Below are positions 18,669-55,121 of a stretch of 64,000 bases of DNA, piece by piece (the stretch's first letter is position 1; each line of letters begins with the position of its first letter). Source of the stretch: a virus. The stretch lies in IMG/VR virus record IMGVR_UViG_3300031787_000011; one strand, 5' to 3'. The notes beneath the pieces were generated by a model that was given only the letters and a program-made list of their open reading frames with translations, made no database searches and was not told where the DNA came from. Both the position numbers and the translations under genes were made by a program.

Positions 18669-18669
18669 G

Positions 18670-21912: not shown

Positions 21913-21914
21913 AA

Positions 21915-22484: not shown

Positions 22485-22485
22485 T

Positions 22486-26800: not shown

Positions 26801-27323
26801 AGTTATCTTTAAAAGTAACTGTCAGAACTTTTTCATTATTCCTTTTTGATAACGAGTAAGAAGATATTTTAAAATTTTTGAGCTGGTATGTTTTTTTGCC
26901 ATCGCCATCTGTGATAGTAATATTATAGCTTGTCGTCGGCCCCATGTACTGATCTTCTATCTTAAAATCCTGGTCTATTAGCTGAGAAAGAGTATCTGAA
27001 GTGCCTTTGAATATTTGGCTTTGATTGTTTATTTGGTTTATTGGCGTAGTTTGAGTATTTCTTGCTGAGTTAAGTTGATTTAAAAGATCAATGTCTCTTT
27101 TTCTCTGTTGCTGCACAGAAAGAGCGCTTTTTGCTTCTTTAAGTGTTTTATTTAAAGCAAGATTAAGAACTAAAGTGCTTGGATTGCCATCGAATCCCAC
27201 ATCAAGAGATAAGGCATAAACATAACCATTAAATAATCTATTCCCAAGATCGAGTGGAGGCTGCCCAGAAGAAAACTGAGTTCTTGTTATATTTATACTG
27301 CTATTGTTCTTTACTTGAGCCAT
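23871..27323 (-). CDS. Putative baseplate hub / tail-tip protein (1150 aa)
   Basis: Lies downstream of the TMP. N-terminal FNGYVYALSLDVGFDGNPSTLVLNL and YSGTLKNVLAQWCEEYSYSY resemble hub (gp27/Tal-like) architecture. Confidence 0.5.
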   Translation of the reverse strand: MAQVKNNSSINITRTQFSSGQPPLDLGNRLFNGYVYALSLDVGFDGNPSTLVLNLALNKTLKEAKSALSVQQQRKRDIDLLNQLNSARNTQTTPINQINNQSQIFKGTSDTLSQLIDQDFKIEDQYMGPTTSYNITITDGDGKKTYQLKNFKISSYSLSKRNNEKVLTVTFKDNSFVLDKIYVGVLGVEVAIDSRSEKEATIDRIILNCPSVNGSKAGSVTVSNFSQFLHFAESNLGQKLSIDPATTQVITDTANGPGKYNYVIIKSTDPLKQITNGYGAIILLGEEDFKDSICKSAETYYSFASLLKAMKALGISIAPSNINSGSSGSSGNSGSSSPVESLRDKSGEQIKRKYSGTLKNVLAQWCEEYSYSYVVDFSGQSNQVRIRGIDLTDSLAKENVLKTKLSLENLEASDSSQFVIRSQDFDYDLSKKNLKVYSSYYFKEAREKNIEYEQILGNRTFRNIRLYDIFPQLFGTPSRPYDFCGANRNYEQVVISAILGKYAPKLREIYNYQIGAYQALGFLPLGGDILGSRLSYIDRQADLIAFEAVSRALELQSELTFDEDGNVLINMNLGFYNESIANNILAIESYIADFIGKHYWTDVQNITEGIAGNENELLQYSVETIPATQKVYSNEIYKLPVFRDAKFLIESLASLYNGTDSYFNAFSEFNRLKANTEDLCSKAQASYVKYVQSLDRLKPVRFYLARDDAAYGIFQELIRGLEYLDYAVSGDPFMSNNSIAQFTRINLAEAYSPIFKELSPVSLGVLRAALPVDVTNLPLSNYSFGVMFGFNSLAQIYQFPTTLSGHSFTNPIEYQNQIAERCTLLRDILAAGNPATLQANKKDCSKTIFYSVCVYPQEQSNIERNNNAALLGIGPDSMQCQRFNITRKMPSNAFLTAHISKSLQSSSGMLALASPALNNILVRSTRFPTPVPFTMVNTTRLESEYITLPSQVNYIVTLKSKSSSQIFAPFKNFIRGGLEDKNDILRILNNEGFSLELDVNNITPNVRELYADETEQSYSSNQSIGGAFGDGTPVVMNFQGYGSNQKPRYEFDTFESFHEKIKSIYDYKAASLLQPNVSYSADLFCSSISDPLKSLLTVDNGLTKLNIALAENGLTIQCSFQSYPGKPLNLQTLIYKNRPNIKLVNTNFLS

Positions 27324-32858: not shown

Positions 32859-35800
32859 TTATCTCTTGAAATTCAAGGCTGCTGGTCCTAGTTTTTTGAG
32901 TTCTGGAATCTTGTCGAATAGGATACTGATTATTCCTTGCATTGCTTCATCTGGGGCATTTTGTATGGATGTTCTTCCATCTATATTTATAACATTAGAG
33001 TTAGAAACATTGCTAGAAGAAGCTCCATTAGGAAATGCTGATGTTATTCCATTTCTCATGGCCTCTGTTATCGCATCGGAAAACTCTCCAATTGCAAAAT
33101 TTGGAACGCTTCCTTGAGCGGCAGATGGGAAAGACATTCTCGGTGCAGACATTCTCATTCTTGAATAAACATCTCCAGAAGCCATCATGCTATTGCTCAT
33201 GGCAGCGAAGTTAGGAACTATACCGCTGGCTCTTTCTTGCATTACTTGCTCAGCAGTGACTCTTCTCCTCGCCGCCTCTTCTGAAACATCTTGAGGGAAA
33301 CTTGGAATAGGTCTGTTCCTAAATTCTATTGTTGATGCAGGAATAACTTGATTAGCTTCTCTAGCAGCTTGCGCTTCTCTTGCTGTTTTATAAATATTAA
33401 AAGATCTGGCAAACTCTGCATCTTTGAAATCTGTTGACTTGAAAGATCCAAGGCCATTCTTTCCTTCTTGGCTTAGTAAATAATTTATCTTATCTTGAGT
33501 GGTTAAATATCCGGCAGACTCAGCATTTTTATCAAAAGATTCTAAGAAAGATTTTCTTAATTTTGAACCTTGGGCTGCGTTTTCCGCTGACATTTCTTTA
33601 TCGATTCTACCTATTTCGGCGGCAGCTTGGGCAGACGCTCTAGCATCCATAGCTGCTTTTGCAGCTTGTTTTTGCTTTTCAATTATGCTTTCTTGCTCTT
33701 GAGTATCTTGAATATTTTTATTTATTTGAGCTTGCCTAGATCTAGAGAGCTGGAAAGTTTCAGAAACTAATGGATTTCCTGCTGCTTCATTGTATCTATT
33801 TATTTCTCTTAATAATTCCATTTTTCTAGGAATTATTCTATTTTCTTCTACGGCTTCCCTGCTAGTCAAACCTCTTACTCGCTTTGAAGACACGGCAGAT
33901 AAGCCCATTGTTTTATAACCTGCTCCGTACATGGCGTCCAATAACCCAGTCGCTTCTACTCCTTTTATAGCACCATAACCCAAAGCTCCGACTGCGAGAG
34001 GAAGAGCCAGGGTAGTTGCGAGGCCAGCGCCAGCTATACCAGCTCCTAATAAGCTTAACGAGCCAATTCCGCTAGATATATTTCCTGCTCCAATTAATTT
34101 TTCATCTTGATTAACAATTTGGTTAACTCCTTGTGCGATTTCAAAGCCAGCGGCTCCTACTCCAAGCGCTCCCAGAGCTTTGCCTCCATATTTACCTAAA
34201 AATTTTAAAGCATTTTTACTAAATCCAGAATTAGAAGTAAATCTTCCTAACGCGTCTCTGGCTCTTGCTGCAGGTTTTGCTACAGCAGAAGCTCCGCTTT
34301 CTTTGAATAATAAGGCGCTTGAAATATCTGCCGCCCTTTTACTTGTTGAAATTCCTTTCGGAGCAAAGCCTTTGGGCATTGTCCTTATTTGATTCCCTAA
34401 TACTTGATCTACTAATTTTTGAGTTGTAGATCCGCGCATATACCCACTTGAACCCAATGATTCTGAAGGGTTAAGCTCAAAAACTACAGTACCGACTCTT
34501 CCCCTTCCTCCTGAGTAAAATTCTTTAGTATTGACTCCTGCTTTTTTTGCGCTTTCTAATGTTGTAGCTCCTACATCTACTCCGAAAAATGCATTTTTTA
34601 TTCCTTTTTTAGCTACAAGTTCTCTGATGCTTTTTACGGCTGTGGCTTGCGCTGCTTTTTTATACTCTTGAGCTACTTTAGCGGCTTCTTTACCTAAACC
34701 AGATTTACTTAAAGCACTTAAACCTTCTTTAGAAGTTATGTCGGCAGTGCCAGCTCCTATTTTCAATACAGAGCCCCCTTTAAGCAATTTAACTTTTCCA
34801 TTCGCGTCAACAGCCACATGGACTCTCATTTCTCCATAATGAGGGCCTTCTACAGCAGCTTGCGTAAAAAATCCTCTAGCTTCTCCGCTTTGAAATCTTT
34901 TTATAATTTCCGCCGTATCTCCCAATCCTATTCCTCCGCTTCTTCCGAAAACTCCTTGCCCTTGAGCAAAACTAGAACCAAAAGCTGTTTTAACTAGAGT
35001 TTGATTGCCTCCTGAAATTTTATTTATTTCGGCTAGCAAATTTTCTGGAGTCAATTTATTTGCTCTAGATAATTTTCTTAATATAGGATCTAAACGCTGA
35101 GATTTAGGAATAGTAGAAATTTTTAATTCATCTAATTTACTTATTCCAGGATCTGCGATTTTTAAAATATTACTTCCTCTTAATTGAGAGCTTAATGTTT
35201 TAGTGCTATAAGGCTGAGTAGATATTGTTTTCGCGCCTTTAGGCAAAGACTCTTTATCTATAAGTTGAGATCCAACTTTGCCAGAAGGTGTAATTTTATA
35301 AAATCCTTCTGTTCCATGATCATACACAAATAAATTGCCAGCTTTTGCAGCTGACGAACCAACAGAAGCTACTTTTTCTCCGTATAGAGCGTAATTAGGA
35401 ACATACCCGCTAGACCTCATTCCTAAACTTCTCAAGCCATTTTTTTCATCGATACTATTTGTGACGCCGAATCCATATGGGTTAGAAGCATTTATTAAAT
35501 CCGGGCTTCTTTCCAAATTAATATTAGCCATAGCAAAGTTAGGAACGCCCATTATTCCTCTGCTGGCTAGCGCTGTTTTTTCTCTATTTACGGCGTCTGC
35601 TATCGAGCTAGAATATTTTGTTAAACCATTTGCGTTGCTTGGTATTCCGGTCGGCATTAATCCGCCCATACCTGCATAAGCTGAAGCGGCTGCTTTGACT
35701 TTTGATTCGTAATTTCCTTCTGATAATTTTACTTCGTCAGTTGTAACATTTACCAAAGCTGTTTTTATACCAGTAGCTCCAAACGCAGTCTTTAAACCAT

Positions 35801-38800
35801 TTTCAAAAGCAGTTATTAAAGCTTTACTTTGAGATTCAGATACTTCTATTAATTTTTCTTTGAGGGGAGAAATTGTATTTTCTAAAACTCTTAAAGCAGC
35901 GTCTTCTGTTTTGGCTTGTCTTACTGATTCTACATTAAATTTTTCGAGATCTCCCATCGCCTTCTGAATATCTTTTGGAATTTCAGGGCTGCCGAATAAA
36001 GCATTAGTTTTGAGCCCGGCAGATTCAAGAAGATATCTTTGATCGAAAGCTTTTCCTCTTAATAAACCAGCAGTTTGCCCAAGACCCATCATTTGAGCCA
36101 TGCCGGCTCTTCTCATGAGGTCTTTTTGCATGTCAAAAGCATTTAGCCTTGTTAGCTCACCCTTTACAGCTTGAATATCTGCTGGCTCTTTGCCGCCTTT
36201 AGTTGTCAAAAGACCTGGATATTTTTGCAAAGTATCAGTCAAAAAGTCTGTAGCCCCAGCAATTTGGCCTCTTCTAGAACCAATCATTGATCCTAGTTGG
36301 TAAGTTAATGGTCCCCTTATAGAAGAAGCCATTGCCTCTGCTCTCATTTGAGGATTCAATGAGGCTCTTATATCTCCGCCGAAAGCTATCTTTTCTTGAA
36401 GAGCTAAAAATTTTAATTGTATTTTTTTGGACTCTTCAGCTATTATTGTTGCTTTATTTATATCTCTTGATTGCTGAGAATTAAAATCAATAAGCTTTTG
36501 TATGCCTTTGGATTGCGCTTCGCTAAGCCCTGGTAATTTTTGTAAGCTTTCTAATTCCCTGCCCGCGCCCGCGCCCGGGGCCTCAATATTTCTTAGTCTG
36601 GCTTCTACCGCAGGAGACAAGTTAGCCAGAAATTCTTTATCATTTAATTGAGTCAATAATGAATTCTGGAAAGAAACTGCAGAATCAGCTTTCTTTATCG
36701 CCAGCGTAGCCTCTGAAGAGGCAGATATACCAGCTCGTCTGCTGAATGTTCCTGCTAGTTCTGCCAATTCTGGAAGTTGTTGTTCTAAAGCTTTCTTTAT
36801 TTCGGTTCTTATATCTCTAGCGTCTTCGACAGCTTGTCTTCTTGAAGCTAATGGCTTGCTTATTCTTGCGATCTCTTTGGCTTGATTAGCGGAAATTTTT
36901 TCAATGCCTTGGGCTACTTTTAAGGCTTCTATAAAAGCCTTTTTCAATTGATCGCTATTTAACTGATCAGAAAATTCTTTTACGTCTAATCCGGCCTTCT
37001 TGAGTATTTCGCCGAAATTAGCTGTAGTAGCTTGAGAAAGATCTGTTTTGAATATATCTGCATTTGCTCTATTTATTATTTCATTAAAGAAAGAGCTTAG
37101 TTCTGCTGGGGCTTGTTCGCCAGTTATTTTGCCTTTTCTGCCGAACGAAAGTGCAGAAGTTCTTATAGCTTCTTCTGTTTGAGCCTTTTTAAGATTTTCT
37201 TCTAAAACAGTAATTTGATCACTAATTGATGTTTGCCCAGCCAATCTAGAAATTAATTCTGGATTCTTGATTGATATTTTCTTTATTAAGTCTTCTCTAG
37301 TTTTGACAAGCTTTACTATTTCTCTAGGATCTGCTTTTGGATCTTTATATGCGGCGTCTAATTTAGACAAAGAAGCACTAAGCTCTGTTGTATTTTCGGC
37401 CAAGTCTGTAAAAGCTTTCTTAGAGCGATCTAACGCATCTTCAAATTTTTTGCTTTGAATTCTTTGATCTAAATCTCCTCCTGACAATTCACCCAACTTA
37501 ACGCCACCATAAATCTGCGCTAAGCCTGTTAATCCCGCCGCTACTCTGCTACCTGTTGAAGCTTTTTTAGACAATATAGCTGTTCCTATATTTTTTATGC
37601 CTGCGGAAGCTGGCAAAGCTTGGCTTATAAATTTTGACACAGCAGAAGGAATCACTTCTCTTTCTGCCAATTCATCTATTATGCTAGCGTAAGCTTGTTT
37701 TTCAAAAAGCTCTAACGCTCCAGAAATTGGATTAGCAAGTTTTCCGCCTGATTTTCCGAAAAAACGAGATAATAAAGCTGTAGGAATTTTAGCAAAATTA
37801 GGAACTACGTCTTTTAACCCATTAGGCTCATCTCTTTTATTTGTTACCGCTATTGGATTTCCGCCTTCATCAAAATGAGCCATGATTTGAGAGGCTGGTA
37901 AGCCGCTCATTGTTTTTTCTCTTCCTATGGCATCTGATAAGCCAGCAAAATTAGGAATATATCCTCCAGCTATTAGCTTTTCTTGCCGCAATATTTTTTT
38001 GCTATAGCCTAGTCTATCAAGTAATTTAAGATGCTCTGGATTATCTGTATCTAAAACTCTTGTACCAAACAGCTGAGCCGAAGAGAAGAAAACACTACTT
38101 TTATTATCAGTTATTCCTGGGAATATTTCTTCTGCATTAATTGGTTTTGATATTGATGGGCCGACTTTTCCAGTCACTAGTATGGGATAACTTTTATGCT
38201 TACCAGGGACTTTAGACGCGTATTCTCCTTGTTGCATTGAAGCTATTGAAGATCCAAATGCATAAGCTCCTTTTGGTCCTCTCGCTTTAACTCCGCCAGG
38301 CGCAAAAAATTTAACTAGTCTAGGATCTTTTAATTCATTTGCTGATTTAACTAATATTTTTTTATTAAATAAATCAGAGCTTAAAATATCAATAATGCTT
38401 TTTATTTCTGATCCGCTATGAGAATTTAAAATTGATTTGACATTAAATCCTCGCTCAGAAAGAGAAGCTATTATTTCTTTTGGCTTTGGATGATTAGCTA
38501 AAAATTGCTGTAAAAGAGCCTCATTAGTTTTTAAATTCTCTGGTACTAGATCGTTTACAGCGGAAGGGGCGACAACTGGGATGATTATGCTTTTAGTTAC
38601 TCCAGCTTTTCGACTTGCATTTTTTAAAGCCGTTGTCGGAGATGTAGATCTAACTGCGCTGGCATACCCTTTGCCTATTCTTGATGCAGAAAAACCAATT
38701 CCTCCAAATACTTCTCTTCCGATGATTTGAACGTCTCCAGTTTTCGAAATGTTTACTCCTTTTGCTCTACCTACTTTTAATGCATCGTAATATTTTGCAG

Positions 38801-41426
38801 CTATTAATATTTTAGCAAAATTAGGAACATATCCACTCGCCCTTCCCTCGATGCCAGATAAAGCGGATCTTACTGTCTCTGGGCTATATTTTTCTTTATG
38901 TACGCTATTGGATTTAAAAATAGCAGCCTGCAAACCTGCTGCGCCAGTTTCTATTTGATGTGATTTAGCAAATTCATTAGCTAATGATATCAATTTTGCC
39001 GCTTCTGTTTTGCTAGGTTTTTTGCCTCCAAGGATAGCTTGGATTACATTTGTATCTATTGGAAAGGCTGTTTTATCTTGCAATATAGCTCTAGCGTAGT
39101 GTCTAGTTTTAGCCGTGTCGTCGCTTCCTAAATCAACCCCTCTTAAAGCCTTCGACAAACCATATCTTCTGGCATCATCTCTAGTTCTTATATTTCCTTC
39201 GGCAGATACTTCACCTTTTTTGCCGAATAAACCCAAAGACGCTACATTTTTGTGCCTGCTAACTATTTTTGATGGAGCTAAATCAAAATAATCTTCTACA
39301 TTAGTAGATCTTGTTTTCATGTACCTGTTGAATATTGGAGCCGCGAATTGAGCAGCTACATAATCAGGCACAGAAGGAGAAATAGCAGAAGTTATATTAG
39401 CGTAAATTTTAGCTTCTTGTGGGGAAAGTTTTTTGCCACTAAATTCTTCGCCATGTATATTATAAAATCCTGCGTAATCCTTTCCTTGTTCATAATGCTT
39501 TTGAAATCTAGCAAAGATTTCTTTTTTGCCGATTCTTTGGATGATGTCTTTACGTTTTGCAAAATTAGGAATATACCCAGAACTCATTCTGGGAATGTCT
39601 TGCATTTTCCTATATTTAGGAATTATCGCGGTGTCTCCTGTGCCAGCAAAGTTAGGAATAACATCCTCTTCGCTATTGACCATTACTGGCTGAGTCTTGC
39701 CTTTAATTGTCGCTTGTATTAATTTAGCTTTTGGATTTTTAGCTCCATAAGCCTTGGCCATAGCGACCTCTTCTTGAGCTCCGCCAAATGTCGGGACATA
39801 TCCAGAAGCTCTTACTCTGCTTGGGCCGCCTCTAGCGACAACTGTAGGAATTATTCTAGCCCTTAAAGCTTCTTGCGTTTTTAGTTGTTTATTTTGCTCT
39901 CTTAAAGTTTGTAATACTGCTTGCTCCGCTGCAGCCAATGAAATGGTTCCCTTTTGTACAAGAGCAACTAATTTAGGACTTTGTGATAAAACATCATTAA
40001 CAGCTTTTTGCGAAGCTAATGATTTTTCTCCAGCGAATACTTCATCAAAATTTTTACTTACATCTTTTATAGAACTAACTCCGAATTTAACCATCTTAGC
40101 TAACAAAGTGCCTCCGATTCCCACTAGAAGAGGGATGCTACCAGTCGCTATAGTTTTTCCAAGGGCAGAGGCGGCCCCTTTAAAAAAAGACTCTCCTACA
40201 GATTTGCCGCTTTCCTCAGATTTTCCTAAAAGATCACTTGTAGGATTTACTGCTTTTAATAATATTTCAGAAAATGAACTACCGATCCTAACTAGTGGCT
40301 CTAACAATGGCTTACCTAATGCGGCAGCAGCTTCCTGAGCTTGGTTTTTTGTTTGTTGTAATAAAGCTGATAAGCTCTTATTTAATTCTTCGTTCTTTTT
40401 CTTAGCTTCATCTGTTGCTGCGCTAGAAATTTTTAAAGCACTAGCATAAACGCTATTTGAGCTAGAAAGATCTTTAATTAAAGCGTTAACTTGGTTGATT
40501 TGGTAAATACCACCAATTAATTCTGCTGTTCTTGATTTTTCTATCTGACTTAAATTTTTTGTAGCATCAGCGTAATTCTTAAGCACGGACAAACCATCCA
40601 ATAAGAATCCATTTTGATCTTTAATAGCAACACCCAACTGCTCCAACTGACTAAGAACCTCTGGTCTTTGTAGGCGAGTAAATATTGTCTTTAAAGCGTT
40701 ACCAATTACAGCGCCACCACGACCAGTTATTTGTTGAGCGGCTGTAACTGTAGCTATTAGCTTGTCTATGCTGATTCCGCTTTCTTCCGCAGAGCTACCT
40801 ACACGGCTAAGAGCCTCGTTCAATTGAGCAGAGCTAACAGCAAATCTTGTATCAACAGCAATTAACTTATTGACAATGTCTGTTGAGCTTAATGCTTCCT
40901 TATTGAAGCTGTTTATCGCAGTAGTGACACCATTTACAGCATCTGCATAACTAATTCCAGATATTCTTGCTAGTGTTAAAGCATCTTCTGTTCTTCTTAA
41001 TACTTCATTAGCAGACAAACCTTGTCTTGCGAATTCTTTAGCAGCTTCAGAAGCGGCTTCGAAAGGAACAGCGGCATTTCTTGCTACTTTGAATAACGAC
41101 TGAGAAAACCCTTCTAGTTGATCTCTAGATTGGCCTAAAAATGTATTTAATTCTACAAGTTGCTTATCGATTTCTATTGTAGCTCTTGCACCAGCTCTAA
41201 TAGCTTCTGAAACTTTGTAGATAGCGCCAGCAGTTAAACCGAAGGCTGTAACGCGGGCTGTAGCAGCTTCCAGAGATTTCCTGAATTCCGTGACATCTCC
41301 GCTTATTCTTCCCAGTGGTTGACCAAATTTAACAGAAGACGCTCTTCTACTAATACTATCAAAAGCTAAGTCTACCTGCTTTGTATTCGGTACAAGATTT
41401 AAATTTACGTTTACATTAGCTGGCAT
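32859..41426 (-). CDS. Tape measure protein (TP901/PhageMin_Tail N-terminal domain) with embedded HhH-GPD-like and ATP-grasp-like domains
   Basis: N-terminal EAAKEFARQGLS...ALTLARISG...AINSF...AVSSAQLNEAL...TGRGGAVIGNALKTIFTRL is a typical TMP core. Ala/Lys-rich helical composition, hydrophobic segments, and position after the tube and chaperones. Confidence 0.93.
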   Translation of the reverse strand: MPANVNVNLNLVPNTKQVDLAFDSISRRASSVKFGQPLGRISGDVTEFRKSLEAATARVTAFGLTAGAIYKVSEAIRAGARATIEIDKQLVELNTFLGQSRDQLEGFSQSLFKVARNAAVPFEAASEAAKEFARQGLSANEVLRRTEDALTLARISGISYADAVNGVTTAINSFNKEALSSTDIVNKLIAVDTRFAVSSAQLNEALSRVGSSAEESGISIDKLIATVTAAQQITGRGGAVIGNALKTIFTRLQRPEVLSQLEQLGVAIKDQNGFLLDGLSVLKNYADATKNLSQIEKSRTAELIGGIYQINQVNALIKDLSSSNSVYASALKISSAATDEAKKKNEELNKSLSALLQQTKNQAQEAAAALGKPLLEPLVRIGSSFSEILLKAVNPTSDLLGKSEESGKSVGESFFKGAASALGKTIATGSIPLLVGIGGTLLAKMVKFGVSSIKDVSKNFDEVFAGEKSLASQKAVNDVLSQSPKLVALVQKGTISLAAAEQAVLQTLREQNKQLKTQEALRARIIPTVVARGGPSRVRASGYVPTFGGAQEEVAMAKAYGAKNPKAKLIQATIKGKTQPVMVNSEEDVIPNFAGTGDTAIIPKYRKMQDIPRMSSGYIPNFAKRKDIIQRIGKKEIFARFQKHYEQGKDYAGFYNIHGEEFSGKKLSPQEAKIYANITSAISPSVPDYVAAQFAAPIFNRYMKTRSTNVEDYFDLAPSKIVSRHKNVASLGLFGKKGEVSAEGNIRTRDDARRYGLSKALRGVDLGSDDTAKTRHYARAILQDKTAFPIDTNVIQAILGGKKPSKTEAAKLISLANEFAKSHQIETGAAGLQAAIFKSNSVHKEKYSPETVRSALSGIEGRASGYVPNFAKILIAAKYYDALKVGRAKGVNISKTGDVQIIGREVFGGIGFSASRIGKGYASAVRSTSPTTALKNASRKAGVTKSIIIPVVAPSAVNDLVPENLKTNEALLQQFLANHPKPKEIIASLSERGFNVKSILNSHSGSEIKSIIDILSSDLFNKKILVKSANELKDPRLVKFFAPGGVKARGPKGAYAFGSSIASMQQGEYASKVPGKHKSYPILVTGKVGPSISKPINAEEIFPGITDNKSSVFFSSAQLFGTRVLDTDNPEHLKLLDRLGYSKKILRQEKLIAGGYIPNFAGLSDAIGREKTMSGLPASQIMAHFDEGGNPIAVTNKRDEPNGLKDVVPNFAKIPTALLSRFFGKSGGKLANPISGALELFEKQAYASIIDELAEREVIPSAVSKFISQALPASAGIKNIGTAILSKKASTGSRVAAGLTGLAQIYGGVKLGELSGGDLDQRIQSKKFEDALDRSKKAFTDLAENTTELSASLSKLDAAYKDPKADPREIVKLVKTREDLIKKISIKNPELISRLAGQTSISDQITVLEENLKKAQTEEAIRTSALSFGRKGKITGEQAPAELSSFFNEIINRANADIFKTDLSQATTANFGEILKKAGLDVKEFSDQLNSDQLKKAFIEALKVAQGIEKISANQAKEIARISKPLASRRQAVEDARDIRTEIKKALEQQLPELAELAGTFSRRAGISASSEATLAIKKADSAVSFQNSLLTQLNDKEFLANLSPAVEARLRNIEAPGAGAGRELESLQKLPGLSEAQSKGIQKLIDFNSQQSRDINKATIIAEESKKIQLKFLALQEKIAFGGDIRASLNPQMRAEAMASSIRGPLTYQLGSMIGSRRGQIAGATDFLTDTLQKYPGLLTTKGGKEPADIQAVKGELTRLNAFDMQKDLMRRAGMAQMMGLGQTAGLLRGKAFDQRYLLESAGLKTNALFGSPEIPKDIQKAMGDLEKFNVESVRQAKTEDAALRVLENTISPLKEKLIEVSESQSKALITAFENGLKTAFGATGIKTALVNVTTDEVKLSEGNYESKVKAAASAYAGMGGLMPTGIPSNANGLTKYSSSIADAVNREKTALASRGIMGVPNFAMANINLERSPDLINASNPYGFGVTNSIDEKNGLRSLGMRSSGYVPNYALYGEKVASVGSSAAKAGNLFVYDHGTEGFYKITPSGKVGSQLIDKESLPKGAKTISTQPYSTKTLSSQLRGSNILKIADPGISKLDELKISTIPKSQRLDPILRKLSRANKLTPENLLAEINKISGGNQTLVKTAFGSSFAQGQGVFGRSGGIGLGDTAEIIKRFQSGEARGFFTQAAVEGPHYGEMRVHVAVDANGKVKLLKGGSVLKIGAGTADITSKEGLSALSKSGLGKEAAKVAQEYKKAAQATAVKSIRELVAKKGIKNAFFGVDVGATTLESAKKAGVNTKEFYSGGRGRVGTVVFELNPSESLGSSGYMRGSTTQKLVDQVLGNQIRTMPKGFAPKGISTSKRAADISSALLFKESGASAVAKPAARARDALGRFTSNSGFSKNALKFLGKYGGKALGALGVGAAGFEIAQGVNQIVNQDEKLIGAGNISSGIGSLSLLGAGIAGAGLATTLALPLAVGALGYGAIKGVEATGLLDAMYGAGYKTMGLSAVSSKRVRGLTSREAVEENRIIPRKMELLREINRYNEAAGNPLVSETFQLSRSRQAQINKNIQDTQEQESIIEKQKQAAKAAMDARASAQAAAEIGRIDKEMSAENAAQGSKLRKSFLESFDKNAESAGYLTTQDKINYLLSQEGKNGLGSFKSTDFKDAEFARSFNIYKTAREAQAAREANQVIPASTIEFRNRPIPSFPQDVSEEAARRRVTAEQVMQERASGIVPNFAAMSNSMMASGDVYSRMRMSAPRMSFPSAAQGSVPNFAIGEFSDAITEAMRNGITSAFPNGASSSNVSNSNVINIDGRTSIQNAPDEAMQGIISILFDKIPELKKLGPAALNFKR
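33091..39812 (-). repeat. Ten dispersed copies of peptide motif (R)[AS][SG]G[YI][IV]PNFA or its core within the TMP
   Basis: Approximate positions: 39780-39812 RASGYVPTFG, 39642-39662 VIPNFAG, 39556-39585 SSGYIPNFAK, 38812-38841 ASGYVPNFAK, 37941-37970 AGGYIPNFAG, 37788-37808 VVPNFAK, 35529-35549 GVPNFAM, 35388-35414 SSGYVPNYA, 33201-33233 RASGIVPNFAA, 33091-33120 AQGSVPNFAI. Confidence 0.95.
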
Positions 41427-41446: not shown

Positions 41447-41452
41447 TTACAC
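41447..41452 (-). promoter_or_regulatory. GTGTAA putative late-promoter motif upstream of the TMP
   Basis: GTGTAAtgtactgAAGGAaacaggttATG. Confidence 0.5.
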
Positions 41453-42447
41453 TATAATCCATGCATTTCGATAAAATCTTGTTTTGTGAGCTTGCCGCCT
41501 TTTTTCGCGGCTAATTCATTTAGTGTCACTGCTTTACCGCCCACCATTTTTTCTAGCTCTTCTCTTGTAGCGCCAGTATAGCCCACGCCGCTTGATTGAC
41601 TTCCCGCGTTTGGCATAGAAACAGAATTTTCTACAGACTCATACCATTCTATCATCTTATCTGGATCAGAAACTACATCAGAAGGAGGGTTTGTTTGGGC
41701 TTGGTTTTCCATCAAAGACTTAAAATACTTTGCTTGAGAGAATAGATTTACTTGCAATATTGTTAAATCTCTTACATATTTACCAAAAAAATTCAAAGGA
41801 CTATTATCACACAAATTAAAAAGACTCATAAAAAACGAACAAGCGCAAATTCTCTTTATTTTATCGTGAGCGAATTTTTGGTAAAAACGCGTTAAAATAA
41901 GAACAAGATTATCTAACTCTCTATCCGATAATAAATCAAATTCTTCCTCTGAAAAAAAACGATTCTTAAATTCTTTATCGCTGTAGAAAGAAAGATATAT
42001 CACTAATTCATTTATTTTTTTGTCGGTATAGCTTTCGGCGCAGAAACCAAGCATGCTCAATTTTTCATTTTCTAATTCAGACAGTTGCTTTGTATAATTT
42101 TTTATTTTATTCTTTGCGTCGTTGATTTGTTTTTTTATGATAAGATTTCTCAGCAACATTTCTGTATCTGAAATTTGGCGCTCTAAGTTCTCTATTTCTT
42201 TTTCTTTTTCATTAGACCATAGTTGATTTCTTATTAAAAAAGTAAGTTTCTCTTCTTTGGATTCAAGACCTTTGTCTATAGCTTCTTGGCTGAATTTTCT
42301 TCTATGCTTATCTAGCTCGCCGTTCTCTAATTCAGTGAAATGCTTAATAAAAATAGGCTTTCCTAAGTATTCATCCTCAGAAAAGCCTACAGCTATCTCT
42401 TTGTACAAGCCTTTGTAAAAGCTTATTTTTTCATAAAGATCGCTCAC
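41452..42447 (-). CDS. Probable tail assembly chaperone (331 aa, GTG start)
   Basis: Immediately upstream of the TMP; charged and helical, with a coiled-coil segment. Confidence 0.6.
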   Translation of the reverse strand: MSDLYEKISFYKGLYKEIAVGFSEDEYLGKPIFIKHFTELENGELDKHRRKFSQEAIDKGLESKEEKLTFLIRNQLWSNEKEKEIENLERQISDTEMLLRNLIIKKQINDAKNKIKNYTKQLSELENEKLSMLGFCAESYTDKKINELVIYLSFYSDKEFKNRFFSEEEFDLLSDRELDNLVLILTRFYQKFAHDKIKRICACSFFMSLFNLCDNSPLNFFGKYVRDLTILQVNLFSQAKYFKSLMENQAQTNPPSDVVSDPDKMIEWYESVENSVSMPNAGSQSSGVGYTGATREELEKMVGGKAVTLNELAAKKGGKLTKQDFIEMHGL

Positions 42448-42453
42448 ACTATA

Positions 42454-43167
42454 TTAACCGACCAGTTCTTCTTTCGGCACTCCAGAGTTGAGCTGCCCGA
42501 TAAGGAAACCACCCTTTTCAACAACCCCGCTCAAGAATTCATCTCCAGATTCTTCTATCTGGTTTAGTCTTTCAAGTTTTTGCTCGAACGAACCTTCACC
42601 AAATAAACAAGTCTGAGACCCTTCCTCGCCCTGATAAAGAAGATTCAATACAAACCAAACATTCAAGAAATCAGAAGCTCTCTTCTCTGCTGTATTATCA
42701 AACAAAGAATTTTGCACGTTTTCATAATCGAAAATCTTTTGGCGTAGCACTTGATACTCTGAATTTAAAGCGGCATTCTTTAATTCCTTTTCTGCGTCAC
42801 TTAAACTCGAATCTTGACGAACCTTTTCTAGTTCAATTTCGATTGCTATTGCCTTGGAATAATTTTCTGCGTGCGCCTTCTTTTCTTCTTCTGATGGCAA
42901 CACGCCGTCTTGCTGGAACTTGCGCAAAAGATAATTTCTAGTAACAAGACCCATCTTTATGCCTTCGGAAACCTTAACTGAATAAAATACGCTCGCCTCG
43001 TCTTGGATCTTTCTATTTGGCCTCAGAATATAAAACTTGTGCGGGACTTTCTTTTCCACCTCTTTGGTGATCTGTATTTCTTCGCCAGCAGCGTTTACTT
43101 CTGTTGTGGTTTCTTTTACCTTTTGAGTCTTTTCGACTTCAAAACTATGTAGCCATTTTTCTTTCAT
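42454..43167 (-). CDS. Probable tail assembly chaperone (237 aa)
   Basis: Between the tube and TMP; acidic and helical (ILRPNRK...NTAEKRA). Confidence 0.6.
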   Translation of the reverse strand: MKEKWLHSFEVEKTQKVKETTTEVNAAGEEIQITKEVEKKVPHKFYILRPNRKIQDEASVFYSVKVSEGIKMGLVTRNYLLRKFQQDGVLPSEEEKKAHAENYSKAIAIEIELEKVRQDSSLSDAEKELKNAALNSEYQVLRQKIFDYENVQNSLFDNTAEKRASDFLNVWFVLNLLYQGEEGSQTCLFGEGSFEQKLERLNQIEESGDEFLSGVVEKGGFLIGQLNSGVPKEELVG

Positions 43168-43170
43168 ATT

Positions 43171-43452
43171 TTATTTTAGTGAAATATTTATAGACTTAAA
43201 GCTAGTATCAATATTTCTAATTGCATCATTGCCAGCGTCTAAGATCTTTTTTCTTATGTAATTATATTTATCGTTATCGAAATAATCAACATTTTTAGCA
43301 AAATCCTCGGAAGAGTTTTCGGCTATTTTTTTTAATAGTATTTCATGATCTTGCTTCAAATCATCGATAATCTCAAAATACTTCTTATAAAGAGAAATAA
43401 TATTTCTGCTATATTGGAATTTCAAATACTCTTTTAGTTTTTCGTCGTCCAT
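43171..43452 (-). CDS. Hypothetical protein (93 aa, MDDEKLKEYLK...)
   Basis: ATG 43452 is preceded by AAAGGA. The track's longer start (43623) runs through the terminator hairpin and is an artefact. Confidence 0.75.
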   Translation of the reverse strand: MDDEKLKEYLKFQYSRNIISLYKKYFEIIDDLKQDHEILLKKIAENSSEDFAKNVDYFDNDKYNYIRKKILDAGNDAIRNIDTSFKSINISLK

Positions 43453-43495
43453 AGTCCTTTGCTGTATTATATAGAAATAATAGAAAATATAAAAT

Positions 43496-43524
43496 AAAAA
43501 ACCCCCGCCGGTTAGGGCGGGGGC
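43496..43524 (-). terminator. Rho-independent terminator after the tail tube gene
   Basis: Minus strand CCCCCGCC-ctaacc-GGCGGGGG-TTTTTT: a perfect 8-bp GC stem plus U-tract, about 20 nt after the stop. Confidence 0.9.
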
Positions 43525-43543
43525 TAGATCGAAAGTTTTTTTA

Positions 43544-44668
43544 TTAACCTTGCTTGAAGTGTAGCCCAGAATTCTTACCGATTTGAGCGGAGAATTCCAT
43601 GGTAACAGTTTGGTTAGGTCCAATTGAAGAAGTGAAGTTTTGAGAATCCAATTTGGCGCCTTTTAGCATTACATAGGCTGTGTGAGCAGTGGCTCCTTGA
43701 TAACCAACTAGCTTTAGCTCGCAGTAATACTTGGTATCGTCACCATTTGTGGTCATTAGAGTATATAGTTTATTGGAAGCAGTAGTTCCAACAATAGCAT
43801 TTACGCTAAGAGTACAATTAATTGGGAAAGTGATTTCTCTAGCGAAAGCGAAAGCCTTGCCAAGTTTTCTGATTGGCTCACGGCCGATTGTCATGGCTAT
43901 ACTAGCGCTTTGGATCTTAAGGTCAGATTCGCTTAGACCAAACATCGGGGCATTGTCTGTGTCGCTAGTCCCTAGTTTTAAAGTAATATCGCCTGGTCTA
44001 ACAGCAGATACTTCAGAGGCTGAGTCGAATAATCCAGCGCCGTCAGGGAGAGTAACTGTGCTTGATGTAGAAATATCAGCTCCATCAACTACAGCAGGAT
44101 TTCCTATGTTGTAAGAACCGCCTCCTCCAGTAAATACTATGTTTTGGCCTTCTAGGGCGCAAGAAACTGTTGGAATTGCTCCTACTGAAGCTTCCAAAGA
44201 CCAAGAAGTGACGAAAGCATTACCAATACCAATAATTCCTTCGACTGTGCTTGTTGACATTTTATTTGAGTCATTGGCGTCGATACCGGCATCGCTGACA
44301 AGAACATAAACATTCTTTTGATCATAACCAGTGCCGCTAGAAATAATATAATCTAGCATGTGGTCAGCATTCGAAGAAACTCCAGTAACAGCGTCTGTTC
44401 TAAACCCTAAATGGCTTTCATTGAACCCTGTTGGCTCAAAGTAGTATGACATATCTACTGCTACGGTAGGTTCTTGCAAAATCAATCTATCAATAGCGGC
44501 CAATTCACCATATTGATTAATGTCTTGGCGGGTAATCGAAAAGTTATAATTACAACTTTGGACTCTGCGTAAGCTATGATCAGCAGCAGTGACTGTTGTT
44601 GTACCTGTTGGCGCGGCAAACAAAGCTTGGCTTTGGTAAATAACACGATTTCTTGTGGTGTTTGACAT
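43544..44668 (-). CDS. Major tail tube protein
   Basis: RNRVIYQSQALF...LRRVQSCNYNFSITRQDINQYGELA...PTVAVDMSY and IQSASIAMTIGREPIRKLG...FPINCTLSV form two tube-like repeats. Strong RBS (TAAGGA), own terminator, upstream of chaperones and TMP. Confidence 0.8.
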   Translation of the reverse strand: MSNTTRNRVIYQSQALFAAPTGTTTVTAADHSLRRVQSCNYNFSITRQDINQYGELAAIDRLILQEPTVAVDMSYYFEPTGFNESHLGFRTDAVTGVSSNADHMLDYIISSGTGYDQKNVYVLVSDAGIDANDSNKMSTSTVEGIIGIGNAFVTSWSLEASVGAIPTVSCALEGQNIVFTGGGGSYNIGNPAVVDGADISTSSTVTLPDGAGLFDSASEVSAVRPGDITLKLGTSDTDNAPMFGLSESDLKIQSASIAMTIGREPIRKLGKAFAFAREITFPINCTLSVNAIVGTTASNKLYTLMTTNGDDTKYYCELKLVGYQGATAHTAYVMLKGAKLDSQNFTSSIGPNQTVTMEFSAQIGKNSGLHFKQG

Positions 44669-44694
44669 ATGGTTTCCTTATATTCTATTGTCAT

Positions 44695-44700
44695 TTACAC
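44695..44700 (-). promoter_or_regulatory. GTGTAA putative late-promoter motif upstream of the tail tube
   Basis: GTGTAAatgacaatagaatatAAGGAaaccatATG. Confidence 0.5.
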
Positions 44701-44727
44701 AAAATAAATGAACTATAGAAAATTATT

Positions 44728-45573
44728 TTAGTAAGCATGAGGGGCTCTTACCACCTCCAAATCGAAGTCAACAAAAGCTGCTATGATGTCTGGATTTAAG
44801 CTCTTAAATTCTGCGGAACTTGATGTTTTTACTTGCGAAACTGAAACGCTAGACATATAAACATTATCTCCTGTAGCTATGCCAGTATAATTGTATGGCA
44901 CTCCAGTATAAGAACTCATTGCATTAAGATTTAAATCATTATTGCTTACTGTTCTAAAAAAGTCGTGAGCAGAATCTCTTAATACTCCGCAAGCGGCATC
45001 AAGGGAATACATTGAATTAGACATAACTAATCCCCTAAAATAACAAGTTGTCATATCTGTGCCGCCAAATCCAAAGGGTTCATTTTGCGAATTGACAAGC
45101 CTTAAAAATATAGCTGGATAAGTTATTTCATTTACAGCTAAACCCGTAAATGTTTGCGGCTTTCTATTTTTTGGCTCCATTTTTGTGGAAAATAATAGAT
45201 AGTCTTCTGATTTATCAGTTAAATAAACATTGAAATCTTTTATGGCATAATTACCACTTATTGTATTGGAGTTTTTATTTGAAGAGAATATTACTTGACC
45301 ATCGTAATGGTTTATAGCTACTAAACCACTTTGCCCGGGCGTGATAAAATTACCATCTAAGTATATTCCTGTTAATTGATTCGCTCCTGTTATAGAAGCA
45401 TCGCTGACTATTTGTTTGTATGGAGCAGCATATGTGTAATACCCATTATAAGCCCCAGAAATTGGATAAAATTTAGAACTAACATTTGTATAGCCCTCGC
45501 CTCTTTTTAATATAGTGTGGTCCACATATAGCAAAAAGCTACTTGTTAAAACGTTTTGGAAATTGGCTTTCAT
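44728..45573 (-). CDS. Putative tail completion/terminator protein
   Basis: Immediately upstream of the tube. TYPAIFLRL...PFGFGG and a terminal FVDFDLEVVR strand resemble tail terminators. Confidence 0.55.
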   Translation of the reverse strand: MKANFQNVLTSSFLLYVDHTILKRGEGYTNVSSKFYPISGAYNGYYTYAAPYKQIVSDASITGANQLTGIYLDGNFITPGQSGLVAINHYDGQVIFSSNKNSNTISGNYAIKDFNVYLTDKSEDYLLFSTKMEPKNRKPQTFTGLAVNEITYPAIFLRLVNSQNEPFGFGGTDMTTCYFRGLVMSNSMYSLDAACGVLRDSAHDFFRTVSNNDLNLNAMSSYTGVPYNYTGIATGDNVYMSSVSVSQVKTSSSAEFKSLNPDIIAAFVDFDLEVVRAPHAY

Positions 45574-46223
45574 TATATTATATTATTTGTAAAATTATTA
45601 GTGAAGTTACTAATAATTTTTGATATATATTTTGTTGTCTTGAAACCAGTCGGACGGTTAGACGGACCATCTGTTATTGGGCCTTTTAATTGCAAACCTC
45701 TTTCAGAACGACCTCTTGGGTAATCAGCGTAATAAGAAACTCCAGAAATTCCTCTTTCTATTCCTTTTACCCAGTTTCTGCCGCCATTCCAACCTTGGAA
45801 TTGAGCCGACTCATTAAAGTCTTCCAACTCTGGGATTTGAAATGAAACTTTTATTATTCTTGTTCTTTTCCCAGTAGCGAATTGACCTTTTTTATTTCTT
45901 GGATAATTTATAGTTAAGTCGGTGCCTTTGAATTTTATTTTTGATTTCAAAGCTGCTCTGACTGGAGAAATTGGATTAAAGCCAGCTTCAAACCCAATAA
46001 AACCAAATAAATCTCCATAACCACCTAAAGTATTGCTAATATTTCCCTGCCCCGGATCTAATAATTCTTGGGTTACAGGATGATCATCAAAATCTTCTAA
46101 AGCTTGATTTTTTATTTCATTAAATTGTTTTTTTATTGCTCTTTCTATTTCATCTTGCACTGAAACGTTAGAAAGGGCTTCTGAAACTATATCTCCTTGT
46201 ATTATTATATTTCCTATTTTCAT
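45573..46223 (-). CDS. Putative neck/tail-completion protein
   Basis: Synteny between the head-closure-like and terminator-like genes; FDDHPVTQEL, GDLFGFIGF, WVKGIERGISG. ATG 46223 overlaps the upstream TGA. Confidence 0.5.
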   Translation of the reverse strand: MKIGNIIIQGDIVSEALSNVSVQDEIERAIKKQFNEIKNQALEDFDDHPVTQELLDPGQGNISNTLGGYGDLFGFIGFEAGFNPISPVRAALKSKIKFKGTDLTINYPRNKKGQFATGKRTRIIKVSFQIPELEDFNESAQFQGWNGGRNWVKGIERGISGVSYYADYPRGRSERGLQLKGPITDGPSNRPTGFKTTKYISKIISNFTNNFTNNII

Positions 46224-46666
46224 CACCTTTCCCTTTCTAAGAAATAAGTGAAATATTGAGAAGATATATAAGGCCTCGGAGATTGAGAAGAAATAAACTT
46301 ATACATCAAATCATTGATAGTCACATAAAGAGTTTTGCCATTGTTTTGTATGAAGTCGTTGGCGTCACTTTGGATTTTTATTTCTACTTCTCCTTTATCT
46401 ATTCTATTTTCTGTTTCTTCTAGTATGTCTTGAGATTGCTTTTTATTAGAAGTAACTAAAGCAGAGAATACCCCTGTAACTGGAGTATAATTAATATTTT
46501 CTATGTCAGATCTCTCATTATAGCCAAACATTCTTGGCTGAGCTATGTTAATAATGTCGATTTTTGCTTCTTTATAAATGACTATGTCCTGCTTGAAGGT
46601 GTCAAACAGGTTAGTCATTCCTTTTTCGAAACTAGCTTTTTGCGTGGCAGACAGTAAAGAAGCCAT
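46223..46666 (-). CDS. Putative head-closure/adaptor protein (147 aa)
   Basis: Size, beta-rich C-terminus (YFTYFLERER) and synteny. Confidence 0.45.
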   Translation of the reverse strand: MASLLSATQKASFEKGMTNLFDTFKQDIVIYKEAKIDIINIAQPRMFGYNERSDIENINYTPVTGVFSALVTSNKKQSQDILEETENRIDKGEVEIKIQSDANDFIQNNGKTLYVTINDLMYKFISSQSPRPYISSQYFTYFLERER

Positions 46667-46709: not shown

Positions 46710-47612
46710 TTAAATTTGGCCAGAAGGATCTGGGGCTACAACATCTACATGAGCAATGTCGCTAATTGTTTCTCCTGCAACATTATAAACTTTTACAGTA
46801 TAATCTCCTGCGCTTGCTTCTGAGCCAGAATTTATATAATAATATTGGCTTATCTCTCCAGAAATTTCAGTTCCGTTCAAGTTCCATTGATAAGAAGGAG
46901 TTGGGTATCCAGATGCCATTACAGACATCCCAAAACTGTTTCCTGAAATTATTTGACCGCCGACTGGTTGATTAGTTATTACTGGAGCAATTGGAGGATT
47001 TACTATCACTGCGCATCCTGAGCTAATAGCTGTTCCTAAAGAATTTGAGACTACAACATCGTAAGTTCCTGCTTGATCTAGTTGAATATTTGAAATTTGT
47101 AAACCAGCACCAGTTTCTTCTGTAAGATCAATTGCGTCTTTTCTCCACTGATAGTACAATGGTTGACCATCTACTCCAACGGAAATATAAGCTGTTTGCC
47201 CAGACCATAATGTAATTTGCCTTTGAGGCTGTATAGAAATAAATGGAGCAATAATTGGAAAAATATCAGCAGACCATGGATTTGGAGGAGTAACTACGGG
47301 AGGAGTAATTTTATTTAAAATCTGCTGTATTGCTGCGCTTTCTTGGCTCTCCTTTTCGCCAGATGGCATGGCAGAATAAACCCAAGAAAAAACTTGATCT
47401 TCTTTCAAATCAAGATATGGAGTAAATGGCCCTGGAGAAGAAGGAACAGAAGTCACACCATAAGTTCTGCCATAATATGGCCCACCGCTTGGACCATTAT
47501 AGTAAGCCAAACAATCCCAGTGAACATTAAATACGTAATCAGTGACGCCGCTAAATTCTGGATAGCAGTCCATTTGATTAACTTTCCATTTTAATTGGAT
47601 GTCGGAGCTCAT
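46710..47612 (-). CDS. Phage tail-associated small domain fused to two Ig-like (I-set-type) domains
   Basis: N-terminal WKVNQMDCYP...VFNVHW...FTPYLDLKEDQVFSWV. Then PFISIQPQ...YYQWRKD...DQAGTYDVVVSNSLG and PVITNQP...SYQWNLNG...AGDYTVKVYNVAG. Confidence 0.85.
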   Translation of the reverse strand: MSSDIQLKWKVNQMDCYPEFSGVTDYVFNVHWDCLAYYNGPSGGPYYGRTYGVTSVPSSPGPFTPYLDLKEDQVFSWVYSAMPSGEKESQESAAIQQILNKITPPVVTPPNPWSADIFPIIAPFISIQPQRQITLWSGQTAYISVGVDGQPLYYQWRKDAIDLTEETGAGLQISNIQLDQAGTYDVVVSNSLGTAISSGCAVIVNPPIAPVITNQPVGGQIISGNSFGMSVMASGYPTPSYQWNLNGTEISGEISQYYYINSGSEASAGDYTVKVYNVAGETISDIAHVDVVAPDPSGQI

Positions 47613-48992: not shown

Positions 48993-48998
48993 AAATTT

Positions 48999-49709
48999 TT
49001 ATAATCCAAATCTACTTTTAGTTGCGTTGTAATTTTGTAATATTTCTTGTGCCGAAAGCGTTCGGTTATATTGTTTAATAGTTGATAAATTAATATTGGC
49101 GTCAGGTCCTCCTAAATCTCCACCTATATAATAGAGATATCCAGAACCTGGATCTACAGAACCTCCTGAAGTTATAGAAACGGCGGCACCTTGTTGTATA
49201 CCATTTTTATAAAAAGTTATATTATTTGCACTTCTATTAACGACAGCGCTAACATTCATCCAAGTTAGTACATCAGTAAATGTCGCAACAGTTGAATAAT
49301 AAATGTTTTGATCAATATCAGTGGTAGTATTTAAAAAAAAGGCTACAGTCCCAGCCGTAGTGTAATTTAATAAAAATAAGAATCCATGTAAATTAGCACC
49401 TCTCGCCTCTACTATTCCATTATATCCATTATCTTTTTGGTATACCCATGCATCTATCGTAAAGCTACTTAATCCTGGATTTAAACTAGCTGGATTACTT
49501 ACACTAATATAGTCATCTGTGCCATCAAAAACAATAGTTCCGCCATTTATATTGCTAAATGTGGGTCCATTGGTTAATGTTCCAATGTAACCAGTTCCGC
49601 TTAAATCTTTCCAAGTGGTACCTGTGCCAGAATAACTATTTTTATCAGCAGCATCTAAACACAATACCAATCCACTTCTAACTATTTTTGGGCCTCTTAT
49701 TATTGCCAT
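48999..49709 (-). CDS. LamG/concanavalin A-like virion protein (minimal, no insertion)
   Basis: GPKIVRSGLVLCLDAADKNSYSGTGTTWKDLSG...YNRTLSAQEILQNYNATKSRFGL; ATG 49709 preferred to TTG 49724. Confidence 0.9.
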   Translation of the reverse strand: MAIIRGPKIVRSGLVLCLDAADKNSYSGTGTTWKDLSGTGYIGTLTNGPTFSNINGGTIVFDGTDDYISVSNPASLNPGLSSFTIDAWVYQKDNGYNGIVEARGANLHGFLFLLNYTTAGTVAFFLNTTTDIDQNIYYSTVATFTDVLTWMNVSAVVNRSANNITFYKNGIQQGAAVSITSGGSVDPGSGYLYYIGGDLGGPDANINLSTIKQYNRTLSAQEILQNYNATKSRFGL

Positions 49710-49713
49710 AATT

Positions 49714-50886: not shown

Positions 50887-50896
50887 GTATTATTGT

Positions 50897-50902
50897 TTAC
50901 AC
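50897..50902 (-). promoter_or_regulatory. GTGTAA putative late-promoter motif
   Basis: GTGTAAacaataatacATG (10-nt spacer, no SD). Confidence 0.5.
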
Positions 50903-50903
50903 T

Positions 50904-52979: not shown

Positions 52980-52982
52980 ATA

Positions 52983-55118: not shown

Positions 55119-55121
55119 ATT

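Follow-up and report, generated by a model that had tools for sequence, protein, structure and literature searches.

The 64,000-nt stretch of viral DNA analyzed here (the window; IMG/VR record IMGVR_UViG_3300031787_000011) encodes a giant siphophage-type tape measure protein (TMP) from an uncultured aquatic phage. The gene lies on the minus strand at 32859..41426, and its product, the 2,855-aa (~310-kDa) open reading frame (ORF) P0001, is a TMP frame into which exchangeable cassettes are set; these fold independently, and a single conserved peptide joins them. Related phages swap cassettes at this peptide, and it is the peptide, not the DNA encoding it, that is under selection. Structure predictions show enzyme folds with conserved catalytic-type residues in two of the cassettes. 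The frame itself consists of an N-terminal core, a ~750-aa ruler, a hydrophobic/helical C-terminal part, and a conserved tip end.

A conserved junction peptide marks sites of cassette exchange

P0001 was taken from the ORF list and its translation. Reading 32859..41426 on the plus strand gives stops only, and that orientation was ruled out. PhageMin_Tail (PF10145) matches aa 119-301 at 92.8 bits, where the cutoff is 33.2, and aa 24-573 are matched by PHROGs of ten TMP families (best phrog_4211, E 6.1e-49); by these profile matches, P0001 is assigned to the TMPs of TP901-1 / PhageMin_Tail type. From the end of the core onwards, the protein is punctuated by a short motif. A regular-expression scan located eight PNFA copies (Pro at aa 591, 620, 868, 1158, 1209, 1962, 2738, and 2775), one PNYA (Pro at aa 2010), and one PTFG (Pro at aa 545). 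For the pattern [IV]PN[FY]A, nine copies were observed in P0001 and 0.004 are expected from its amino-acid composition. Scanning all six frames of the 64-kb window yielded no further copy, and in 934 kb of related loci 288/294 motif matches fall in giant TMP ORFs. The original prediction, made from the sequence alone, had described a conventional TMP core to about aa 540 followed by ten such motifs, eight PNFA, one PNYA, and one PTFG, confined to this protein. Each of these statements holds, with motif positions agreeing within ~6 aa.

A logo of 449 unique instances gives the 9-residue consensus [AS]-x-G-[YF]-[VI]-P-N-[FY]-[AS]. The informative positions are chiefly those between -4 and +4, with a drop to background level right after the final A/S, and the P and N are ~100% conserved among homologues of ~30% identity. 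Models from AlphaFold2 (AF2) place the motifs in low-pLDDT coil or linker, with the next domain beginning 0-5 residues later. Codon usage at the motif is near gene-wide frequencies and every synonymous codon occurs there, showing that selection acts on the peptide and not on the DNA.

A word-indexed search with aa 540-1215 as query collected 69 giant metagenomic TMP homologues of 1,672-4,722 aa. The motif is present in 69/69, with 1-17 copies each and at least three copies in 65/69. Cutting each protein after every motif and clustering the pieces defined modules M1-M33, which fall into a common frame, M2-[M12]-M6-{cassettes}-M1-M3-M1-[optional cassette]-M5-M7/M14-M4. Some 25 mostly unrelated cassette families are reshuffled among the 69 homologues. 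Cassette lengths are narrowly set (e.g. 183, 248, 290, and 103 aa), and hhalign comparisons find most cassette families alike only in their last 10-30 residues, that is, in the linker and motif. The homologues keep the motifs while the intervening domains vary, which is the outcome that the original prediction had proposed looking for. Its suggestion that the motif is a recombination junction is also directly supported by the comparisons below.

The nearest relative (L001), from an estuary metagenome, is 96% identical. Between it and the window lies a 1,431-nt indel equal to 477 aa, or two cassettes, and the crossover falls inside shared motif DNA, GG(G/T)TAT(A/G)TTCCTAATTTT, of 17-20 nt. The ATP-grasp-bearing part of M5 is likewise replaced between the two, starting from 7 residues past a motif; because this region differs while its flanks are 96% identical, the ATP-grasp-bearing segment itself has been swapped. 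The exchanged segments span window positions 33304-35365 (gene nt 6062-8123) and L001:17494-20260; the M5 version of L001 is dissimilar and longer, at 964 aa compared with 728 aa in the window. A comparison of 40 homologues gave 454 internal block ends, and 60% of these are no more than 10 aa away from a motif, as compared to 7% of random positions, where blocks were defined at no less than 75% identity and the counts are of sequence pairs, not of independent recombination events. The crossover in motif DNA and the block ends at motifs together identify the motif DNA as the site of cassette exchange.

The modules of P0001 all lie on the minus strand. The core, M2 (aa 1-548; 39783..41426), recurs in 64 family segments and ends in the degenerate motif G-Y-V-P-T-F-G (aa 542-548). 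Two mini-modules follow: M12 (aa 549-594; 39645..39782), ending in D-V-I-P-N-F-A, and M6 (aa 595-623; 39558..39644), ending in G-Y-I-P-N-F-A, whose motif DNA holds the L001 indel crossover. Beyond the cassettes M8 and M15 lies the first copy of mini-module M1 (aa 1162-1212; 37791..37943; C-terminal V-V-P-N-F-A), of which the family has 102 copies. M1 spans ~50 aa with the consensus PNFA-x-L-S-D-A-[IV]-x-R-E ... N-P-x-G-x-A-V-T-N-x-x-D-E-P-N-G-L ... G-Y-V-P-N-[FY]-A. The next module, M3 (aa 1213-1965; 35532..37790), is 753 aa long, motif-free up to its C-terminal G-V-P-N-F-A, and found in 53 family members at 589-791 aa; judged by its composition, it is presumed to be a helical ruler segment. 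A second M1 copy (aa 1966-2013; 35388..35531) ends in G-Y-V-P-N-Y-A. M5 opens with the ATP-grasp-like domain described below and continues into a Gly-rich hydrophobic stretch (~aa 2385-2510; 33897..34274), read from the sequence and of low pLDDT, which is a candidate membrane-inserting segment. A Gly-zipper_Omp match in the homologue P0063 (E 5.5e-4) bears on this stretch. The C-terminal part of M5 (~aa 2511-2741; 33204..33896) is modeled by AF2 as long helices (573-785 of the model) and ends in G-I-V-P-N-F-A. Mini-module M7 (aa 2742-2778; 33093..33203; C-terminal G-S-V-P-N-F-A) precedes M4, the C-terminal end of the TMP (aa 2779-2855; 32862..33092), which is highly conserved with many invariant columns and present in 51 members at 72-78 aa. 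Motifs come in pairs or triplets at the borders of M2, of M3, and of the C-terminal part of M5.

Predicted folds of the cassettes

Pfam, PHROGs, and PDB sequence/profile searches of the inter-motif segments gave nothing for the P0001 cassettes. As sequence methods were uninformative past the core, homologues were collected, alignments built, and two stretches folded. The three blocks that the original prediction had sized at about 240, 280, and 320 aa measure 248, 290, and ~311 aa. Its placement of motifs at the edges of globular, non-helical blocks agrees with the low-confidence linkers that AF2 sets beside folded domains. It had further called one block HhH-GPD-like and another ATP-grasp-like. 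Both assignments stand at the level of predicted fold and fail at the level of sequence, where the former has no Pfam or PDB match and the latter lacks Pfam membership.

Cassette M8 (aa 624-871; 38814..39557; C-terminal G-Y-V-P-N-F-A) is a predicted HhH-GPD glycosylase-like all-alpha domain, its two-lobed HhH-GPD architecture being supported at the fold level by the AF2 model. K773 and, 18 residues further on, D791 do not vary among 27 sequences. In the model, the hairpin's second helix begins at K773, and a Pro-containing loop leads into the helix capped by D791. In HhH-GPD glycosylases, the helix-hairpin-helix is followed by a Gly/Pro-rich loop and a catalytic Asp, and bifunctional members have an additional Lys in the HhH; K773 and D791 may correspond to K120 and D138 of EndoIII. 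M8 has no Pfam match, including PF00730, at E values up to 10 and no PDB sequence or profile match. Foldseek with the aa 612-1212 model returned nothing from PDB at E <= 0.001. Within BFVD, the M8-like fold weakly matches polyvalent-type phage proteins. Weak matches to standalone proteins of ~200 aa occur in Salinibacter phage M31CR41-2 (A0A2I6UH43, target TM 0.64) and Synechococcus phage S-CBP42 (G8EYE9, target TM 0.56). The same database holds matches to large multi-domain 'uncultured Caudovirales' proteins with helicase, GNAT, SleB, or ART-PolyVal-like annotation.

Cassette M15 (aa 872-1161; 37944..38813; C-terminal G-Y-I-P-N-F-A) had no Pfam, PHROG, or PDB sequence match and is related only to cassette family M10 (hhalign M10 vs M15, 97.5% probability). 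An ESM Atlas shape search reached a TM of only ~0.2. An ESM Atlas feature search, which provides leads only, gave a best score of 0.88 to an unnamed entry and 0.80 to ART-PolyVal and diphtheria-toxin clusters. With hhalign, neither M15 nor M10 was linked to the ADP-ribosyltransferase (ART) cassette found in a relative, and M15 was accordingly left without a fold assignment. Free-standing forms of M8 and M15 were sought by an exhaustive HMMER search with aa 624-1161 over 1.84 billion representatives, which returned 12 proteins, all giant TMPs or fragments.

The N-terminal part of M5 (aa 2014-2324; 34455..35387) is an alpha/beta domain with pLDDT mostly 80-95 in the AF2 model of aa 1950-2855. 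The top 50 Foldseek matches for this segment are all ATP-grasp enzymes, including tubulin tyrosine ligase (TTL), PurK, ArgX/LysX, Ddl, and RimK, with probabilities of 0.87-1.00 (best 7cbz_F, E 1.4e-4), and the modeled domain is accordingly assigned an ATP-grasp fold. The signatures KTAFG..GVFG, FFxQ, ExRVHV, GVDVG, and FE[LIV]NP[ST] are conserved in those ~15 of 28 M5 variants that carry the domain, whose identity is 27-88%. These were placed at the canonical ATP/Mg positions, a beta-strand Lys with a Gly-rich loop and an E-x-N Mg site, by pattern, not by residue-level superposition. Pfam returned no ATP-grasp family match for aa 2014-2324, and a search for shorter proteins carrying this part as a free-standing domain gave only three probable TMP fragments.

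Relatives of P0001 carry further cassette types. The homologue P0063 combines an ART-PolyVal cassette (E 6.7e-25) with a DUF7178 cassette. DUF7178 cassettes occur in several relatives and match the free-standing phrog_3842.

Proposed processing and delivery, and known systems

We favor a reading, which we hold to be about as probable as its negation, in which the tail carries the cassettes along with the TMP, a processing-site peptide frees them, and microhomology lets them be exchanged. Traveling with the TMP, the cassettes would exit at ejection, and cytoplasm-type enzymes would thereby enter the cell before gene expression. The payload of P0001 would consist of a Lys/Asp glycosylase-lyase-like domain and an ATP-grasp ligase, and that of relatives would include an ADP-ribosyltransferase. 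The junction peptide would most likely be the processing site that frees the cassettes. Such a role is favored because its specificity is confined to the N-terminal side and stops at a small residue, as would be expected of non-primed positions in a protease site, and because phage T5 cuts its own TMP just before the enzyme domain at a site with [FY]-V-P. The 15-20 nt that code for the peptide could then provide in-frame microhomology for cassette gain, loss, and swap. The ART-PolyVal cassette and the polyvalent-type matches in BFVD suggest that the strategy may be a tail-borne counterpart of the 'polyvalent protein'. The original prediction had seen in the motif a protease or assembly site and/or a recombination junction that lets enzymes be loaded in the tail lumen and delivered early. 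Of this, the motif, the folds, and the recombination junction are supported, while the protease-site, lumen-loading, and early-delivery parts stay conjectural.

Precedent for TMP processing comes from T5 pb2: a cut after R1127, immediately ahead of the enzyme domain, splits this protein, and both pieces stay in the tail (Linares et al. 2023, PMC10038345). The T5 TMP is a metastable trimer that is expelled on receptor binding (PMC10038345). We read the cleavage context as N-S-F-V-P-R followed, after the cut, by A-E-G-G. Set against S-G-Y-V-P-N-F-A here, this context has in common only [FY]-V-P and a preceding small residue, a weak likeness. T5 pb2 also differs in having one site and one muralytic domain that acts on the cell wall, with [IV]PN[FY]A absent, whereas P0001 has ten sites, cytoplasm-type enzyme folds, and exchangeable cassettes. 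Small muralytic motifs are reportedly embedded in mycobacteriophage TMPs as well, where they are said to vary among related phages and to act at infection. Unlike the cassettes described here, those inserts are of peptidoglycan hydrolase type rather than ATP-, NAD-, or DNA-dependent folds and are not linked by a shared junction peptide.

A close conceptual parallel lies in polyvalent proteins, for which delivery with the DNA and splitting into units have been proposed (Iyer, Burroughs, Anand, de Souza, Aravind 2017; PMC5512222). Like them, P0001 belongs to a type of giant phage protein that strings unrelated enzymatic domains together with extensive mosaicism (PMC5512222); the predicted HhH-GPD and ATP-grasp folds of P0001 and the ~25 cassette families of its relatives provide several such domains. 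The ART-PolyVal domain, a polyvalent hallmark, is found in the relative P0063. In P0001 itself, Pfam searches of the whole protein and its segments gave only PF10145, with none of the hallmarks ART-PolyVal, LPD, and MPTase-PolyVal. P0001 differs from polyvalent proteins in that the carrier is the TMP itself and that one strictly conserved 9-residue peptide separates the units. The word 'tape' occurs 0 times in the text of PMC5512222, and glycosylase domains are not listed in it.

A different likeness concerns addressing. A short conserved peptide directs diverse unrelated cargo into a phage-related container both in extracellular contractile injection systems (eCIS) and in encapsulins; eCIS cargo is tagged N-terminally and encapsulin cargo C-terminally, and the cargoes are separate proteins. 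By contrast, the cargo here forms consecutive parts of the TMP chain, and no motif-bearing protein exists on its own nearby. One preprint describes the loading of eCIS cargo as poorly understood (bioRxiv 10.64898/2026.05.27.728243). Literature on the motif, on DUF7178, and on TMPs in connection with polyprotein, effector, or enzyme yielded no published description of the present layout. This TMP combines enzyme-bearing TMPs with polyvalent proteins. New relative to both is the shared junction peptide together with exchangeable cytoplasm-type enzyme cassettes, which is found in neither, and to which P0001 adds the predicted HhH-GPD and ATP-grasp cassettes and a crossover seen at nucleotide resolution.

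Several points weigh against the processing and delivery reading. A protease is absent from the Pfam matches of the 64-kb window. The lumen of a siphophage tube is ~4 nm wide, and three copies of folded 250-310-aa domains would not fit abreast in it, which means that the cassettes would be stored extended or unfolded, or placed elsewhere. Cutting at each motif would free conserved mini-modules of 29-50 aa (M6, M7, M12, and M1) whose purpose is not evident. The likeness to the T5 site extends to three residues only, and the block-end statistic counts pairs of sequences that are not independent events. Lastly, the HhH-GPD and ATP-grasp assignments are predicted structures, and neither domain matches its own Pfam family.

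The main rival is that the motif stays uncut and is a docking peptide, which would anchor the C-terminus of each cassette to the inner wall of the tube or to an assembly chaperone, much as short C-terminal loading peptides attach encapsulin cargo to the inside of the shell; motif clusters would clamp the ruler ends. We consider this fairly unlikely, even though it accounts better than cleavage for the mini-modules and paired motifs. The motif follows a flexible linker and is C-terminal in otherwise unrelated domains, double and triple motifs border M2, M3, and the C-terminal part of M5, and conserved mini-modules between paired motifs suit structural elements better than released peptides; the lack of a Pfam-recognized protease in the window also agrees with it. 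However, a binding partner has not been identified, conservation stops abruptly after the small residue, a pattern seen more typically at cleavage sites, and T5 shows that a TMP can be cut immediately ahead of its enzyme domain. Moreover, the motifs have no periodicity matching the tube repeat, and none lies inside the 753-aa M3. Alternatively, the cassettes could act in the producing cell as parts of a late polyprotein, the ATP-grasp domain modifying virion proteins and the HhH domain holding or processing the DNA end, and then be removed before the tail is complete or remain as inert passengers. Lambda gpH and T5 pb2 are indeed processed during tail morphogenesis (PMC10038345), the producer cytoplasm supplies ATP and DNA, and the problem of lumen capacity is gone if the cassettes are removed. 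We nonetheless judge this quite improbable: the cleaved enzyme piece of T5 remains in the tail, the ~25 unrelated cassettes, ART-PolyVal among them, turn over fast, as conflict effectors do and assembly factors do not, and the failure of M8 and M15 ever to appear free-standing among 1.84 billion representatives is unexpected for ordinary late enzymes.

That the domains are catalytically dead relics of enzyme folds, whose only use is to fill space in an unusually long tail or to plug it, with the motif as a structural hinge, seems very improbable to us. TMP length sets tail length, so inserts could tune it, M15 has no recognizable fold, and Pfam membership is absent for all P0001 cassettes. Against this stand the catalytic-type residues (K773, D791, and the ATP-grasp signatures), which are invariant or conserved in distant homologues, the bona fide ART-PolyVal match of a relative, and the fact that helical repeats add length better than globular inserts. 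An already disfavored view, and one we find barely credible, treats the motif primarily as a DNA-level recombination signal with peptide conservation as a by-product. The indel crossover does lie exactly in the shared 17-20 nt, and block ends do pile up at the motif; yet no synonymous codon is missing from any motif position and codon frequencies there are near those of the whole gene, the P and N persist at ~100% across homologues of ~30% identity, and a dedicated site for homologous recombination would need more than 15-20 nt.

Taken further, the processing and delivery reading allows a broader proposal that we advance tentatively and regard as rather doubtful. Throughout a large clade of uncultured long-tailed phages, the TMP may be a peptide-addressed delivery train, cut by a protease of either the phage or the host (perhaps the one responsible for T5 pb2 cleavage, in which host involvement has been suggested), from which an exchangeable DNA glycosylase/lyase, ATP-grasp protein ligase, and ADP-ribosyltransferase would enter the host before phage gene expression, with the DNA of the peptide as an in-frame trading joint. 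Delivery of the cassettes, if it takes place, would make siphophage tails into protein injectors whose payload can be exchanged, the polyvalent idea would extend to the tail lumen, and dozens of uncharacterized proteins would become candidate host-takeover or anti-defense enzymes. The junction peptide would offer a simple handle for payload discovery in metagenomes. It could also help identify the protease that matures TMPs, an open question since lambda gpH and T5 pb2, and could serve the engineering of tails that carry chosen proteins into laboratory bacteria. Even without delivery, this is a clean natural case of in-frame domain shuffling at a short conserved joint.

Distribution of relatives and genes around the TMP

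Beyond the 69 homologues, IMG/VR holds ~40 more TMPs (L011-L052) of 1.5-4.2 kaa with motif-bounded M1 and 3-7 motifs. A tblastn search of 50,697 GenBank phages with aa 540-1215 and aa 2560-2855 found no match, and in 185,579 species genomes only six contigs of metagenome-assembled genomes (L055-L060) have such parts. These six contigs, which carry M1, are binned as Flavobacteriaceae, Crocinitomicaceae, Puniceicoccaceae, Neomarinimicrobiota, and Halobacteriovorax, a weak hint at hosts. An apparent natural split of the TMP in the homologue P0020, which is without the N-terminal core, was traced to a 100-N scaffold gap and discarded as an artefact.

A tail-tube-like gene (phrog_3995, phrog_158) lies at 46710-47612. 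Between it and the TMP gene are seven minus-strand ORFs (41452-46666) without Pfam or PHROG match, and the gene order around the TMP, including these ORFs, is the same in L001 and in a further related locus (L053). Seven ORFs exceed the usual chaperone pair, and they are candidate chaperones or a candidate TMP-processing factor. A programmed frameshift between the ORFs at 43544-44668 and 43171-43623 was considered and dropped, as their overlap has no slippery sequence. Downstream of the TMP lie a 3,228-aa ORF at 8997-18683 and ORFs of 938-1,164 aa at 2685-8995 and 18670-27323. A Pfam scan of four downstream ORFs, run outside the 3,228-aa ORF, gave no match, and there was no PHROG match either.

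Just upstream of the tail-tube-like gene, at 47661-56363 (minus strand), five of six ORFs (443, 390, 691, 711, and 413 aa) end in a C-terminal Laminin_G_3 / ConA-like lectin domain, and two of the Laminin_G_3 ORFs additionally carry CBM_4_9. These lectin-domain ORFs are probably a family of carbohydrate-binding virion decorations or fibers. A gene with a weak HNH match sits among the Laminin_G genes of the estuary relative (L001:1034-1840). An ORF at 57348-63998 encodes more than 2,158 aa and extends past the window edge; directly downstream of it lies a GT25 glycosyltransferase gene (56638-57339, E 8.2e-10).

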